This document shows, piece by piece, positions 21,702 through 24,854 of a stretch of DNA of 64,000 bases (the first letter of the stretch is position 1; each line of letters opens with the position of its first letter). The notes under the pieces are model-generated. The model saw only the letters and a list, made by a program, of their open reading frames with translations, had not been told where the DNA came from and made no database searches. A program made the position numbers and the translations under genes. The stretch is from an uncultured Thermoprotei archaeon (GTDB lineage Archaea > Thermoproteota > Thermoprotei > Thermofilales > B15-G2): the NCBI GenBank assembly GCA_965367815.1, contig CBDUKN010000005.1, positions 64,001 through 128,000 on the forward strand, given 5' to 3'.

Positions 21702-21802
21702 ATTATTTTCTTAAACCCAAAGTATAGAAATTTGTTTTCTTTAATTGACTGTCTTACTACACTGCTTATAGCCTAATTTTTGAAAGATTCAGAATTGCTT
21801 AC

Positions 21803-21838
21803 TTTTTACCTAAATTCACCTTAATTATTAGGTAAAAA
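21803..21838. promoter_or_regulatory. Inverted repeat TTTTTACCTAA-N14-TTAGGTAAAAA upstream of ArsR operon
   Basis: Perfect 11-bp arms just upstream of TTTATATA (~21849-56). Confidence 0.5.
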
Positions 21839-21899
21839 TATAGAAAAATTTATATAAGCTATAAAATTTAATATATACCTAGAGAAAAAAATAATATAG

Positions 21900-22238
21900 G
21901 TGAAGCATATAGGTGATACATGTGTGCATGAACCTAAGGATCTTCGTGAGTTGGCGAAAATACTCTCTATTTTATCAAATCCTATTCGCCTGAGGATGAT
22001 AGCTATGTTATCTGAAAAGCCTATGTATATTTCGGAAATAGCGCGTCAATTGAATATTCCTTATCCGATAGCTCATCTCCATTTATCGGCTTTGGAGAGA
22101 GCAGGTTTCATTAAGGGAGAATACATAATGTACACAGGAAAACGAGCATACGTTAAAAAATACTACAGGGTTATTCCTTTTAAAATAACTATTACTCCTG
22201 ATAAAATAAGAAAATTAGCTAGAGGTGAGGAATTATGA
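21900..22238 (+). CDS. ArsR/SmtB family wHTH regulator
   Basis: LSNPIRLRMIAML, YISEIARQL, HLHLSALERAGFI. Confidence 0.88.
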   Translation: MKHIGDTCVHEPKDLRELAKILSILSNPIRLRMIAMLSEKPMYISEIARQLNIPYPIAHLHLSALERAGFIKGEYIMYTGKRAYVKKYYRVIPFKITITPDKIRKLARGEEL

Positions 22239-22612
22239 CTCTCGATGAGGCTACTGCATTAATGGGTGCAGCGATATTTATTGCTGTTTTTGCAGTGCCT
22301 ATAGCCATGTTTTACTATGTAGGTGAATTTGGATTAGATGTCTGGGTTGCGATAGGAGTTTCTGCGCTAGCTATAATTGTAGGAGGAGTTCTAGCTATGG
22401 TGACGATGGTGGTCGCTTATCAATCATTGAGTGAAAGAGGCGGCACTGTAAATAGAATAATGAAGAGAATATGGGAAGAATATGGAGAAAAGGGGCTGGC
22501 TTATAGTGCGCGGCAGAGAGCTATGCTCGAAGAATTAGATGAAATAGTTGAGCTACTTAGAGAGATTCGTGATTTACTTAAAGGTGAATATGATGAGACG
22601 AGAAAGTACTAA
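22235..22612 (+). CDS. Two-TM membrane protein with C-terminal LLREIRDLLK helix
   Basis: SD GAGGTG upstream, ATGA overlap with ArsR gene, two hydrophobic helices. Confidence 0.75.
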   Translation: MTLDEATALMGAAIFIAVFAVPIAMFYYVGEFGLDVWVAIGVSALAIIVGGVLAMVTMVVAYQSLSERGGTVNRIMKRIWEEYGEKGLAYSARQRAMLEELDEIVELLREIRDLLKGEYDETRKY

Positions 22613-22745
22613 AGAGAAGAAGCTTAAGTACGCTGATTTAAGTGATAGTGAAGTAGAGGAGCTTATAATGAAGCGTCTTAGAGAAATGAAGGAGCTTTTG
22701 AAGGAAATAAGAGATATTCTGAAGGAGGCTGGTGGATATGAGTAA
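22590..22745 (+). CDS. Small soluble coiled-coil protein (LLKEIRDILK)
   Basis: SD GGTGA 22583-87 before ATG 22590/22593; overlaps both neighbours. Confidence 0.6.
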   Translation: MMRRESTKEKKLKYADLSDSEVEELIMKRLREMKELLKEIRDILKEAGGYE

Positions 22746-23529
22746 TTTATTTGACGAGTACTATGCTTATCTTAGCGAGAAAAAGTCTAAGTTTAGGGGT
22801 CCTGTAAAAGTTACTTCAAATACTTTATCAGTAGCGGGGTCTCTTGTACTAAGAGAGGACACTAATATTCCTGCAATTAAAGTTGCTGGGAGCTTAAAGC
22901 ATTTGGGGAGTATTAAGGCTGAAACCGTTAAGATTGCTGGTAGTCTTGAGGTGAAGAACGATCTTGAAGCTGAGAATGTAAGTGTTACCGGAAGTCTTTT
23001 TGTGGGAAATAATCTCACAGTAAATAATTTATTCAAAATTGCGGGTTCAGCTAACATAAAGGGAAATGTTAAAGGAGGCAGAGTAAAGATTGCGGGTAAA
23101 CTCAAAGCTACTGACGTTGAATGCGATTACTTCAGGTCTAGCGGGAAAGTAATACTAAGGAAACTTAAAGCAGACGAAGTGTTTATTGAGCTTCACTCAA
23201 GTACATGTCACATAAATGTAATTGAAGGAAATGATATTGAAGTAAGGCTTCAGGAAGAATATGAGGAAGATACAGTTACTAGAATAATTTCTAGAGCACT
23301 CAGTATTTTATTTGAATGTTTTAGTCTAGAAACTCTAGAGAAAGAAGGAAAACTATATTCAAGTAAAATAAAAGGCAAAAACATTTACTTAGAAAATACT
23401 GTATGTGAGCTAGTTGAAGGGGATTTTGTTGAAATAGGCCCTGGCTGTGAAATCGATAAAGTTGTCTATAAGTATGAGTTAATTGGTCATCCAGAGTCGC
23501 GTGTAAAAGAATCTGTTAAAATAAGCTAA
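22738..23529 (+). CDS. Bactofilin/polymer-forming cytoskeletal protein (YhbE/YhbF type)
   Basis: ~17-aa beta-helix repeats (V/I)AGS; C-terminal IYLENT...EGD.VEIGPGCEI..V.Y as in Bacillus YhbE/F. Confidence 0.82.
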   Translation: MSNLFDEYYAYLSEKKSKFRGPVKVTSNTLSVAGSLVLREDTNIPAIKVAGSLKHLGSIKAETVKIAGSLEVKNDLEAENVSVTGSLFVGNNLTVNNLFKIAGSANIKGNVKGGRVKIAGKLKATDVECDYFRSSGKVILRKLKADEVFIELHSSTCHINVIEGNDIEVRLQEEYEEDTVTRIISRALSILFECFSLETLEKEGKLYSSKIKGKNIYLENTVCELVEGDFVEIGPGCEIDKVVYKYELIGHPESRVKESVKIS

Positions 23530-24131
23530 GGATATATTTTGGCTCCCATAACGCGTGGGTTGTTATCGTATATTTCTTTTATATGAAATATATAGACTGG
23601 TGTTTTGCTCCAGTCTCGTTGCTTTTTCCCACCATGATATAAATCGTGTACTGCATTGACGTACTTCCAGTATACGTCGTTTTCATGTATAGTTACAGTG
23701 CATCTTACTTCATACGTTATATTAGGAGGTATATAGAATAAGAGAGTTGCAGTAGGGTTTTTACGAACATTAGTCCATGTATGGCGTTTAGCTAATTCAA
23801 TAGATGTTAATTTACTGAAATCTACTTTATTTTCATCATAAACGAGCTCTAAGAGTATTTTAAGAGCTTCTTTTGAGTCAATACCTTTCTCCAAGCATTC
23901 GAGTAATTTATTCGTAGTCTCTTCTAAGTACTCCTCCTTTAATATAAATCCAACACCCTTTATTGATGCATTGAGGCCTGCTGGACCATAGCTTACTACT
24001 GCTGGTGTATGCCTAAGAAAACCTATGAGAAAGTCTTCTCTAGTGCTTTTGCCTTTGAGGACACGCTGTATGAGTTCTTTTCTCTCAGTGAAGATATGTT
24101 TAATAAATTGAGCGGGAATACTGCTCATCAA
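23526..24131 (-). CDS. Pyridoxamine 5'-phosphate oxidase-like FMN-binding protein
   Basis: HTWTNVRKNPTATLLFY, YIFHIKEIYDN. Confidence 0.7.
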   Translation of the reverse strand: MMSSIPAQFIKHIFTERKELIQRVLKGKSTREDFLIGFLRHTPAVVSYGPAGLNASIKGVGFILKEEYLEETTNKLLECLEKGIDSKEALKILLELVYDENKVDFSKLTSIELAKRHTWTNVRKNPTATLLFYIPPNITYEVRCTVTIHENDVYWKYVNAVHDLYHGGKKQRDWSKTPVYIFHIKEIYDNNPRVMGAKIYP

Positions 24132-24152: not shown

Positions 24153-24854
24153 TTAAATATATTTGAGAGCTTTTACAGGAATCTTGTATAGTTGGGTTAA
24201 TTTATTTACTGTTGAACGCATAGCTACAAGAGCAAAAGCTCCTATAGGGTTTGCCTTAGCTATTTTACATGCATCAAGTAAAGCCGAAATTGTAGCCCCT
24301 GAGCGAATAATGTCGTCTACAACTAGTATTTTTTCATCTGGTTTAAGTATGTTCTTAGGTAAGTATAGGTACGAGTATAGTCCACTTGGAAAAACTCTTT
24401 TTATCTCAATAAAGTCTCTCACACCTATTTCTTTTCTATGTTTAGCTATAGCTATGTCGACTCCTATTTTCTCTGCTATAAGGACGGCTAGAGGTATGCC
24501 GTCTGTTTCTACAGTTAAAACTTTTTCTACTTCACTAAACTCTTCTACAACTACGCTTGCAACTAAACTTAAAAGCTGTGTATCACTAATGATTTTAGAT
24601 ACATCTACTACGCCATTAGTTAGTTTTAATTTTCTATCGAGTAATTTAGGCAGTAATGTTTCGTGAAATTTATTTATTATTTCTCTGGCTCTTTCTGTGC
24701 TTGGAAGTATTCTCCCATTGATATATTGGCTTAAAAGTGAGGGTGATAGATTAAATACTGGTGAAAGTTCATCATATGAGAATTCTTTCTTAAGTACCCT
24801 TAGTACTTCTACTGATATTAGCTTTAGTCTAAGAGAGTCTAGTTTTCCCGACAT
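24153..24854 (-). CDS. HTH-fused phosphoribosyltransferase (PurR-like)
   Basis: N-terminal HTH LSQYINGRILPS; ILVVDDIIRSGAT. Confidence 0.85.
   Translation of the reverse strand: MSGKLDSLRLKLISVEVLRVLKKEFSYDELSPVFNLSPSLLSQYINGRILPSTERAREIINKFHETLLPKLLDRKLKLTNGVVDVSKIISDTQLLSLVASVVVEEFSEVEKVLTVETDGIPLAVLIAEKIGVDIAIAKHRKEIGVRDFIEIKRVFPSGLYSYLYLPKNILKPDEKILVVDDIIRSGATISALLDACKIAKANPIGAFALVAMRSTVNKLTQLYKIPVKALKYI

Follow-up and report, generated by a model that had tools for sequence, protein, structure and literature searches.

A conserved four-gene unit in Thermofilum-like and related archaea that joins an ArsR-type regulator to a BacE/F-like beta-helix protein and two small helical proteins

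In the SdpR-SdpI system of Bacillus subtilis, an autorepressor of the ArsR family is sequestered by a membrane protein encoded beside it; SdpI is a multi-pass immunity protein, and the system has no beta-helix protein. In the yhbDEF system of the same species, as described in the accessible part of a 2026 publication (PMC13649987), the proteins BacE and BacF bind the helix-turn-helix (HTH) protein BacR (YhbD, DUF4004), stop its DNA binding and retain it at the membrane, and vancomycin frees BacR. BacE and BacF typify a BacEF-type cluster of “13-winding” bactofilin-like proteins with bacterial and archaeal members, and archaeal BacEF homologues have been noted in print, with a Methanobacterium protein as the archaeal example (PMC11459167); the words operon, synteny, Crenarchaeota and Thermoproteota are not found in the accessible part of that text, which also describes polymer formation by bactofilins and the archaeal halofilins. 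Bacterial gene neighborhoods combining Toastrack, winged helix-turn-helix (wHTH), transmembrane (TM) and ATP-binding cassette (ABC) components have been described as envelope-stress systems, for which Ravi et al. predict a similar logic, and transfers of Toastrack to Euryarchaeota appear to be only occasional (PMC11237479, accessible part, in which neither bactofilin nor ArsR occurs). Here, we describe an archaeal cassette of four genes, encoding an ArsR-type regulator, a protein with two TM segments (2-TM protein), a micro-protein and a bactofilin-like beta-helix protein. The cassette lies in a stretch of 64,000 nucleotides (nt) from an uncultured Thermoprotei archaeon (assembly GCA_965367815.1, contig CBDUKN010000005.1, positions 64,001 to 128,000), which is referred to below as the window and to which all unprefixed coordinates apply.

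The four-gene unit recurs across one archaeal phylum, from Thermofilum-like archaea to metagenome-assembled genomes (MAGs) labelled Bathyarchaeota or Methanodesulfokora. In the window, the genes occupy positions 21900-23529 of the plus strand, overlap one another and encode, in this order, the ArsR-type wHTH regulator, the 2-TM protein, the micro-protein and the beta-helix protein. The first-pass annotation of this DNA had staked its reading on a gene order conserved elsewhere, and this order was indeed found in 16/29, 18/18 (as far as the contigs extend) and 16/17 loci collected by different searches; these counts often share genomes, and the relatives are not independent, so that the numbers measure breadth and are not statistics. 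The beta-helix protein was matched in 31 of the 41 genomes of the window's order and in 37 of the 120 of its class. Among the 29 loci anchored on this protein outside the own genome, 16 have the regulator, 2-TM, micro-protein and beta-helix genes in the same order; the other 13 comprise two that are consistent but start inside the cassette, two that are cut at the beta-helix gene and nine of other paralogue types (~224, 280 and 400 amino acids (aa)), which have no cassette partners. A search for the tail motif of the 2-TM protein in 185,579 species genomes matched 61 stretches, of which 18 were confirmed, in genomes labelled Thermofilaceae, Thermofilum, Infirmifilum, Thermofilales, Thermoproteales, Thermoproteota or Thermoprotei archaeon. 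All 18 loci show the cassette as far as their contigs extend: the regulator is present in 17 (L047 begins inside the 2-TM gene), the micro-protein in 17 (L035 is cut), and the beta-helix gene is full-length in 13, truncated in one and cut by contig ends in four. With a broader 2-TM profile, the family was found in 34 of 401 genomes sampled from the phylum, and outside the window's order 16 of 17 loci contain all four genes in order, L055 being cut by a contig end. Because the four genes are kept as a set across one phylum, their association is far beyond chance, and they probably build, to judge from their sequences, a membrane-attached control or scaffold complex.

The last gene of the cassette (open reading frame (ORF) 22732-23529, plus strand, likely ATG at 22738, 263 aa) had been credited in the first-pass annotation with the bactofilin architecture of BacE and BacF, and this is supported. 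The Pfam Bactofilin model (PF04519/DUF583) scored 27.2 bits against a cut-off of 27.9 on the window protein and, in a genome search that counted neighboring stretches, 29.2 bits, above the cut-off; PF04519 was matched by 29/29 aligned family members at E <= 0.01 (best 3.9e-13), and the family profile retrieved the solved bactofilins 6ria (E 4.5e-5) and 2n3d (E 9.3e-5). In the AlphaFold2 (AF2) model, which has a predicted local distance difference test score (pLDDT) of 87.5, residues 2-15 form a helix at the N-terminus and residues 179-191 a helix inserted into the beta-helix, which spans 23-171 and 205-261; the conserved glycines are spaced at 17 residues, and ~12 windings of 17 residues were counted with the help of the model. 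Foldseek found nothing at E <= 0.001 when the model was compared with PDB. VIA-align returned generic beta-helices, among which the matches of low root-mean-square deviation (rmsd, ~2.5-3 Å) are right-handed, as exemplified by 6n2c_B (Z 17.1, rmsd 2.5 over 207 residues), the first-ranked match being YdcK (2f9c, Z 17.2, rmsd 11.7); short bactofilin chains are not among the matches listed, which does not exclude such matches. In the prediction, the chain thus winds into a right-handed beta-helix whose windings are short and triangular. Outside Archaea, the nearest relatives are “polymer-forming cytoskeletal” proteins of Bacillaceae and Paenibacillus, which align end-to-end, with the C-terminal windings covered too (for the Firmicute match, E is 2.4e-17 and the identity 31% over 87% of the query). 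Taken together, the full-length Firmicute alignment, the uniform PF04519 matches and the winding count support the assignment of a long bactofilin relative with a BacE/F-like architecture, in a comparison made with proteins of Bacillaceae and Paenibacillus. No Toastrack model reached E <= 0.01 with the window protein; of its 29 relatives, five touch DUF2807 and one touches DUF4097 weakly.

Other beta-helix genes were noted along the way. The window's own genome contains, outside the window (G000:C22:32767-33075), a second bactofilin-like open frame of ~409 aa, with E 7.7e-11 to the window protein, which represents the long paralogue type that is devoid of cassette partners in other genomes. 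The shorter paralogue type has an N-terminus like MQEIEELSVGG in L015 and L028. On the reverse strand of L012, a 98-aa ORF that appears winged-helix-like by eye is located just upstream of a 224-aa paralogue, and the two may represent a second regulator/beta-helix pairing.

A feature that sets the cassette proteins apart from the other paralogues is their N-terminus. Many canonical bactofilins have a short N-terminal membrane-targeting sequence. The window protein starts with an acidic/aromatic helix (residues 2-15, of low pLDDT); the consensus of this helix is roughly EKFD.YE..L, to which LFDEYY corresponds in the window protein. Of the 37 distinct cassette-type proteins, 32 contain the motif [FLM][DEK].Y, with near variants in four of the other five and a mis-called or frameshifted start in the fifth (L004); the motif occurs in 0/10 non-cassette paralogues, two of which are N-terminally cut. 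The helix is missing in 12 of 13 bacterial alignment rows. In the exception, P0006, the position of the archaeal N-terminal helix is taken by a SHOCT domain (Pfam E 9.5e-4), and the rest of the protein is a beta-helix of the BacE/F-like kind. Two irregular genes were also observed: in L004 (reverse strand, ~2325-2330), the N-terminal helix MSDKFERYEEAL... is encoded by a 44-aa ORF in a frame other than that of the 275-aa body, which suggests a frameshift or a sequencing error, and in a Thermofilaceae MAG (L032:4436-4582, plus strand) the beta-helix gene is reduced to a 48-aa ORF, with the three upstream genes intact, which could mean that the gene has decayed to a pseudogene, or else that a frameshift or a faulty assembly is involved.

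Two families of the same class have a beta-helix body of only 149-173 aa that has lost the typical V.VSGS windings, with the N-terminal motif and both helical partners retained. This observation bears on the possibility of a cytoskeletal scaffold, the reading of the first-pass annotation, in which the beta-helix protein polymerizes like a bactofilin, the 2-TM protein and the micro-protein only anchor or nucleate it, the regulator does not touch the complex, and the role is one of position or shape. The annotation also took the scaffold to be stress-inducible, for which nothing in the present analysis speaks. Thermofilum, Infirmifilum and Thermofilaceae, which are the named relatives, are filamentous or rod-shaped. 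Two Thermofilum abstracts call the isolates filamentous, and the protein belongs to the bactofilin family, which, like the archaeal halofilins, is polymer-forming according to the accessible part of PMC11459167. The shrunken bodies speak against a scaffold because, were a polymer lattice conserved, one would expect constraint on the body as well as on a docking helix; moreover, strict linkage to a regulator and frequent linkage to ABC-2 transporter genes fit signalling or transport better. On balance, we consider a purely structural scaffold somewhat unlikely.

The second and third genes match no Pfam or NCBIfam family. The 2-TM protein (22235-22612, plus strand, 125 aa) has hydrophobic segments at ~8-26 and 38-56 separated by a short loop, which is 7-27 aa long across the family, and its model (pLDDT 84.6) consists of a helical hairpin (3-32 and 36-67) followed by one long helix (69-124). 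From the K/R residues at the N-terminus of most relatives, an N-in, C-in topology can be predicted. The long helix ends in an invariant tail, ARQRAMLEELDE...LL.EIRD.LK, and all 12 invariant columns of the family fall in this tail (positions 92-115 of the first sequence), with the TM segments varying. The family is small, with 72 relatives among 1.84 billion representative proteins; its Atlas cluster has 379 members, 99% of them from Archaea, and lacks a Pfam family, and distant relatives are labelled Bathyarchaeota, Candidatus Methanodesulfokora, Thermoprotei MAGs and one Lokiarchaeota MAG. The micro-protein (ORF 22548-22745, plus strand, likely ATG at 22590) has 51 aa in the window and 38-51 aa in relatives, and combines a motif LKY.DLSDEEVE with a coiled-coil tail. 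It matched 185 database clusters at E <= 0.001, the organism names on the matches being all Thermofilum, Infirmifilum, Thermofilaceae or Thermoproteales, with Thermofilum pendens and Infirmifilum lucidum among the source names.

Comparison of the 2-TM and micro-protein profiles with hhalign (95.4% probability over 25 columns) identified the tail that they have in common. The first-pass annotation had called both helical proteins MscL-tail-like, a description that holds only as a resemblance between coiled coils. The best match of the two profiles among solved chains is the designed sc-apCC-6 (E 1.1e-7), followed by the CC-Hex, CC-Hept and CC-Pent designs; COMP is at E 0.12, and 4lku, a peptide from the MscL C-terminus, trails at E 1.0. 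Matches of the NCBIfam MscL models are confined to the micro-protein tail (E 0.12-0.68), Pfam MscL does not match the 2-TM protein at E <= 1, a Foldseek comparison of the 2-TM model retrieved nothing at E <= 0.001 and no MscL among the matches listed, and Pfam COMP matches two of 18 micro-proteins (best E 1.8e-4). On these profile matches, the resemblance is one of coiled-coil class, of the higher-oligomer type, and not homology to MscL, and the class of the tail hints at a pentamer-to-heptamer bundle. A likeness to SHOCT was also considered, both for the micro-protein and for the helix that opens the beta-helix protein, and was rejected, since the hidden Markov models do not back it: none of the 18 micro-proteins matches SHOCT (PF09851) at E <= 5.

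Several records of these two families appear to be misleading. Source names of micro-proteins (“YutE/DUF86” and “predicted nuclease of toxin-antitoxin system”) and of 2-TM proteins (“Na+-transporting ... decarboxylase beta subunit” and “amino acid permease”), attached to proteins P0028, P0029, P0237-P0245 and P0214, are not backed by any family search and look like annotation errors. P0197 (219 aa), present in one public collection as a candidate fusion of the regulator with the 2-TM protein, was rejected as an alternative-frame ORF across the regulator gene. In L071 and L073-L078, which represent two families of the same class, ORFs of 215-220 aa (for instance, L073:1165-1824, plus strand) likewise cover the regulator gene in a different frame and extend as far as the 2-TM gene; such ORFs, P0197 included, are most likely mis-called genes and not fusions because their N-terminal half is of low complexity and overlaps a clean ArsR ORF.

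The first gene (21900-22238, plus strand, 112 aa, GTG start) encodes a wHTH protein, with Pfam HTH_5 (PF01022) scoring 42.4 bits against a cut-off of 22. Its finer classification falls below every threshold applied: the NCBIfam metalloregulator model gave 39 bits (cut-off 55), the SdpR model 28.5 bits (cut-off 100) and the Phr model 33.6 bits (cut-off 320). Among 18 regulator orthologues, there is no invariant Cys and no conserved Cys/His metal site, and the only nearly invariant His is in the recognition-helix motif, so that the protein presents itself as a bare wHTH without a sensor domain of its own. A known defence system was considered and discarded, since the PADLOC matches, to Csa3/CasR, are of the generic wHTH kind. 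Among solved chains, the regulator is nearest to 2p4w (E 4.1e-15), which we take to be the Pyrococcus heat-shock regulator Phr. Together with the Phr model match and with tails of the higher-order coiled-coil type, this would accommodate a sensor of temperature or membrane state, in which the tails melt or rearrange when heat or a membrane disturbance acts on them and release a Phr-like repressor. However, the distance from the Phr cut-off means that only the wHTH is in common, heat-shock genes are absent from the operon and its flanks, and the proposal is purely inferential; accordingly, such a sensor appears very unlikely.

The regulatory region upstream of the cassette contains two candidate sites. 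A perfect inverted repeat, TTTTTACCTAA / TTAGGTAAAAA (21803-21813 / 21828-21838), with 11-nt arms that are 100% complementary and a 14-nt loop, is placed ~11 nt upstream of a TATA-like box, TTTATATAA (21849-21857, plus strand), which is preceded by an A-rich stretch and was recognized by promoter comparison; the box fits an (A)AAG-TTTATATA(T/A) element found upstream of the regulator gene in most orthologous loci. The repeat is one of 13 inverted-repeat pairs in an AT-rich stretch of 221 nt. In 2000 dinucleotide shuffles of the 198-nt intergenic region 21702-21899, a perfect repeat with arms of at least 11 nt and a loop of 3-30 nt was seen in 1.55%, a frequency that makes the repeat only moderately unusual. 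The arm, with at most one mismatch, occurs six times in the window against 4.99 expected and is therefore not enriched, and the paired half-sites occur once in the 2.45-Mb genome, which speaks against the repeat as a regulon motif. It is also absent from the regulator promoter of a same-genus relative (L002), where a CBS-domain gene sits between the glycosidase-like gene and the regulator gene and where a perfect 11-nt palindrome, AGGTATATAAT-TG-ATTATATACCT, immediately follows the conserved TATA element.

A degenerate copy of the L002 palindrome (~21858-21881) falls in the candidate TATA-proximal operator region of the window (21858-21901), which also contains the half-sites ACCTA (21877-21881) and TAGGT (21897-21901), common to the upstream repeat. 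Palindromes just 3' of the TATA box are present in the orthologous promoters L007, L011, L019, L021, L023, L035 and L042 as well. Across 25 promoters, inverted repeats downstream of the TATA box are mildly enriched (summed longest repeats 120 versus 109.9 +/- 4.8, with 120 reached by 11 of 500 shuffles), in a pooled test whose automatic TATA anchoring is rough and misplaced some promoters. From these promoter comparisons, the TATA-proximal site is the more likely operator. The 11-bp inverted repeat of the first-pass annotation does exist at 21803-21838 but is doubtful as an operator, given its absence from the same-genus promoter with the TATA-proximal palindrome; it may possibly be an auxiliary regulator site, or else a chance, remnant or local feature. 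A direct repeat, ATATAGGTGA, present twice with a 13-nt spacing at 21894-21916, straddles the regulator GTG and is kept in the same-genus relative, and could represent SD-like (Shine-Dalgarno-like) elements or regulator half-sites.

As for the gene calls themselves, the coordinates of the first two genes are those of the ORF list. GTG 21900 is the best start of the regulator gene because an in-frame GTG at 21924 reads GTA in the same-genus relative, and ATG 22590 and ATG 22738 are the most likely starts of the third and fourth genes because orthologues begin there. The genes overlap by 4 nt (ATGA, 22235-22238), 23 nt (22590-22612) and 8 nt (22738-22745). The description of the locus in the first-pass annotation as four overlapping genes, all of them SD-led, stands with respect to the gene set, the overlaps and the SD-like motifs before genes 2 (GAGGTGAGG, 22222-22230), 3 (AGGTGA, 22582-22587) and 4 (GGAGG, 22724-22728), but gene 1 is not clearly SD-led, as the GGTGA motifs overlap its GTG start or come after it.

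In many relatives, the cassette is accompanied by genes of an ABC-2 exporter. An ABC ATPase gene is present within the ~3.3-kb locus in 18 of the 38 cassette genomes, directly downstream on the same strand in ten, upstream on the same strand in seven and divergent in one. By Pfam, L039 has a DrrA-like ATPase and two ABC-2 permeases, L080 an ATPase and a permease that precede the regulator gene with a gap of 5 nt, and L082 an ATPase and a permease that come after the cassette; in L041 the ATPase is confirmed and its permease would lie beyond the contig end, and in L044 and L046 the ATPase is confirmed and followed by two proteins without a Pfam match at E <= 1e-5. Such neighborhoods could mean that the three structural proteins are cytoplasmic and membrane accessories of a pump for immunity, detoxification or lipid/glycan export, that the ArsR protein is the pump repressor and that the window copy is an orphan whose pump has been lost or relocated. 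The three arrangements of the ATPase genes, the confirmed permeases in L039, L080 and L082, the close spacing in L080 and the bacterial Toastrack, HTH and ABC contexts described in the accessible part of PMC11237479 would all agree with an accessory or regulatory module of this kind. It is nevertheless distinctly unlikely in our estimation: 20 of the 38 genomes, among them that of the window and all six from genus g5 that carry the cassette, have the four genes intact and no adjacent pump, and the variable position of the pump suggests repeated association and not an obligatory machine.

Other neighbors were observed as well. Two convergent genes follow the cassette on the minus strand of the window, encoding a 201-aa protein with a sub-threshold match to PNPOx_N (23526-24131; 22.9 bits, cut-off 28.1) and an HTH and phosphoribosyltransferase protein (24153-24854; NCBIfam PRK08558, 244.8 bits), and both are kept in the same-genus relative L031. 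In an Infirmifilum MAG (L038:5141-7269, minus strand), an SPFH/Band-7 gene and an NfeD gene, which make up a membrane-organizing pair, come after the cassette on the opposite strand.

The reading that we favor, tentatively and at somewhat short of even probability, takes BacR-BacEF of Bacillus as its model: a platform tethered to the membrane would control the ArsR regulator encoded with it. The four genes would constitute one operon, the products of which would assemble on the cytoplasmic face of the membrane. The 2-TM protein, inserted with both termini inside, would present its conserved helical tail; the micro-protein, with the same tail, would co-assemble with it into a multi-helix coiled coil; and the beta-helix protein would dock on this coiled coil through its conserved N-terminal helix. 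The conservation pattern suggests that these three short helices, namely the tails of the 2-TM protein and the micro-protein and the helix at the N-terminus of the beta-helix protein, may serve as contact sites within a single complex. The regulator would repress or tune the operon from a site near the TATA box, with its activity set by binding to, or release from, the membrane complex, in a partner-switch or sequestration loop like that of BacR with BacE and BacF. In many relatives, the unit may also drive or sense the ABC-2 exporter encoded beside it, and this suggests an output that concerns the membrane or envelope. Co-transcription, every protein-protein contact, the topology, the autoregulation and the signal are what we infer in this scheme; the gene set with its conservation, the family assignments, the common tail, the conserved N-terminal helix and the ABC linkage are observed.

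Several points weigh against the platform reading. The contacts, the DNA binding and the expression of the four proteins are predictions from sequence. The TATA-proximal palindrome of the window is degenerate and its perfect repeat lies upstream of the TATA box, a location that fits simple repression less well. The regulator is of the ArsR type and, unlike BacR, does not belong to DUF4004, which is not among the 17 families listed at E <= 1. No fusions of the micro-protein with its partners were found, a weak negative since the word index is overfilled with long proteins. Nor do all carriers have the exporter link: in 20 of the 38 cassette genomes, the window included, there is no pump within flanks of ~1.5 kb. 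Finally, shared genomes and kinship make the locus counts overstate the number of independent observations. A joint fold of residues 84-125 of the 2-TM protein, which make up its tail, with the micro-protein and the beta-helix protein, calculated with alignments, scored 0.01 against a mark of 0.32 and is uninformative either way. Of the 22 sequencing runs listed, 18 contain part of the stretch, and none of these is an RNA run.

A bolder version of the platform reading can be formulated for the phylum as a whole, as a signalling device in which a bactofilin platform, tethered to the membrane, would switch a bare wHTH repressor by capturing it reversibly. Two new families with a higher-order coiled-coil tail in common, a 2-TM anchor and a micro-protein of ~45 aa, would make up the platform, with possible ABC-2 coupling. 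We regard this general archaeal device as unlikely in its full extent; if true, it would represent an archaeal counterpart of bacterial envelope-stress sensing that is independent of two-component systems. To our knowledge, little has been described of the ways in which Thermoproteota monitor their membrane or envelope. In this respect, the conserved four-gene unit offers a small, defined and testable system, and biochemistry is feasible because named carriers, Thermofilum pendens and Infirmifilum lucidum, exist. The cassette also brings in two protein families without a Pfam model, including a micro-protein that is mislabelled by annotation pipelines.

As to novelty, the beta-helix family and its archaeal presence are already in print (PMC11459167, accessible part), and so is the regulator-bactofilin partnership in Firmicutes (PMC13649987, accessible part). 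In the literature on bactofilins combined with archaea, Crenarchaeota, Thermoproteota or ArsR, the cassette was not found in titles or abstracts, although supplements may list archaeal contexts, nor were bactofilins found placed in such a role in Crenarchaeota or Thermoproteota or tied to ArsR; the statement in the first-pass annotation that no described archaeal system with this gene set was known to it agrees with what these searches returned. What is new here is the phylum-wide archaeal regulator-linked module of the BacE/F type, its two new partner families and its frequent ABC-2 link. Three points go beyond the first-pass annotation, namely the recurrent exporter, the helix conserved at the N-terminus of the cassette's beta-helix proteins, and BacR-BacEF as an analogue already published for Firmicutes.

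Compared with the known systems, the locus combines familiar elements in its own way. In the tail L(L/V).EIRD.LK, hydrophobic residues are placed as is usual for coiled coils in the pentamer-to-heptamer range, as in COMP, the C-terminal bundle of MscL and the designed barrels; the 2-TM protein differs from the MscL channel in that it has no match to the MscL family and, across its relatives, a short loop of 7-27 aa. With respect to SdpR-SdpI, the score of 28.5 bits against a cut-off of 100 places the window regulator outside the SdpR family. With the Toastrack and HAAS-PadR systems, the cassette shares a stand-alone wHTH protein, a small TM or helical transducer, an intracellular platform with a right-handed beta-helix and, often, an ABC transporter (PMC11237479, accessible part). 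It differs from them in that the window protein matches Bactofilin and not the Toastrack models (DUF4097/DUF2807/DUF2154), in that the 2-TM protein has no HAAS, DUF1700 or DUF1129 match and in that the regulator is ArsR and not PadR. The ~12 windings of 17 residues of the window protein bring it close to the BacEF-type cluster. In contrast to yhbDEF, which has two beta-helix genes, the archaeal cassette has one, and it adds a 2-TM anchor and a micro-protein that are not mentioned in the accessible part of PMC13649987; the archaeal beta-helix proteins also have an extra N-terminal helix relative to 12 of 13 bacterial relatives, a set that does not include BacE and BacF themselves. As in BacR-BacEF, the gene of an HTH regulator comes first in an operon with long bactofilin genes of the BacE/F type (PMC13649987, accessible part). 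The window extends the 2026 proposal from Bacillus that BacE/F-type bactofilins work with a transcription factor, and suggests that the pairing of bactofilin and regulator is of greater age and modularity than one would conclude from Firmicutes.

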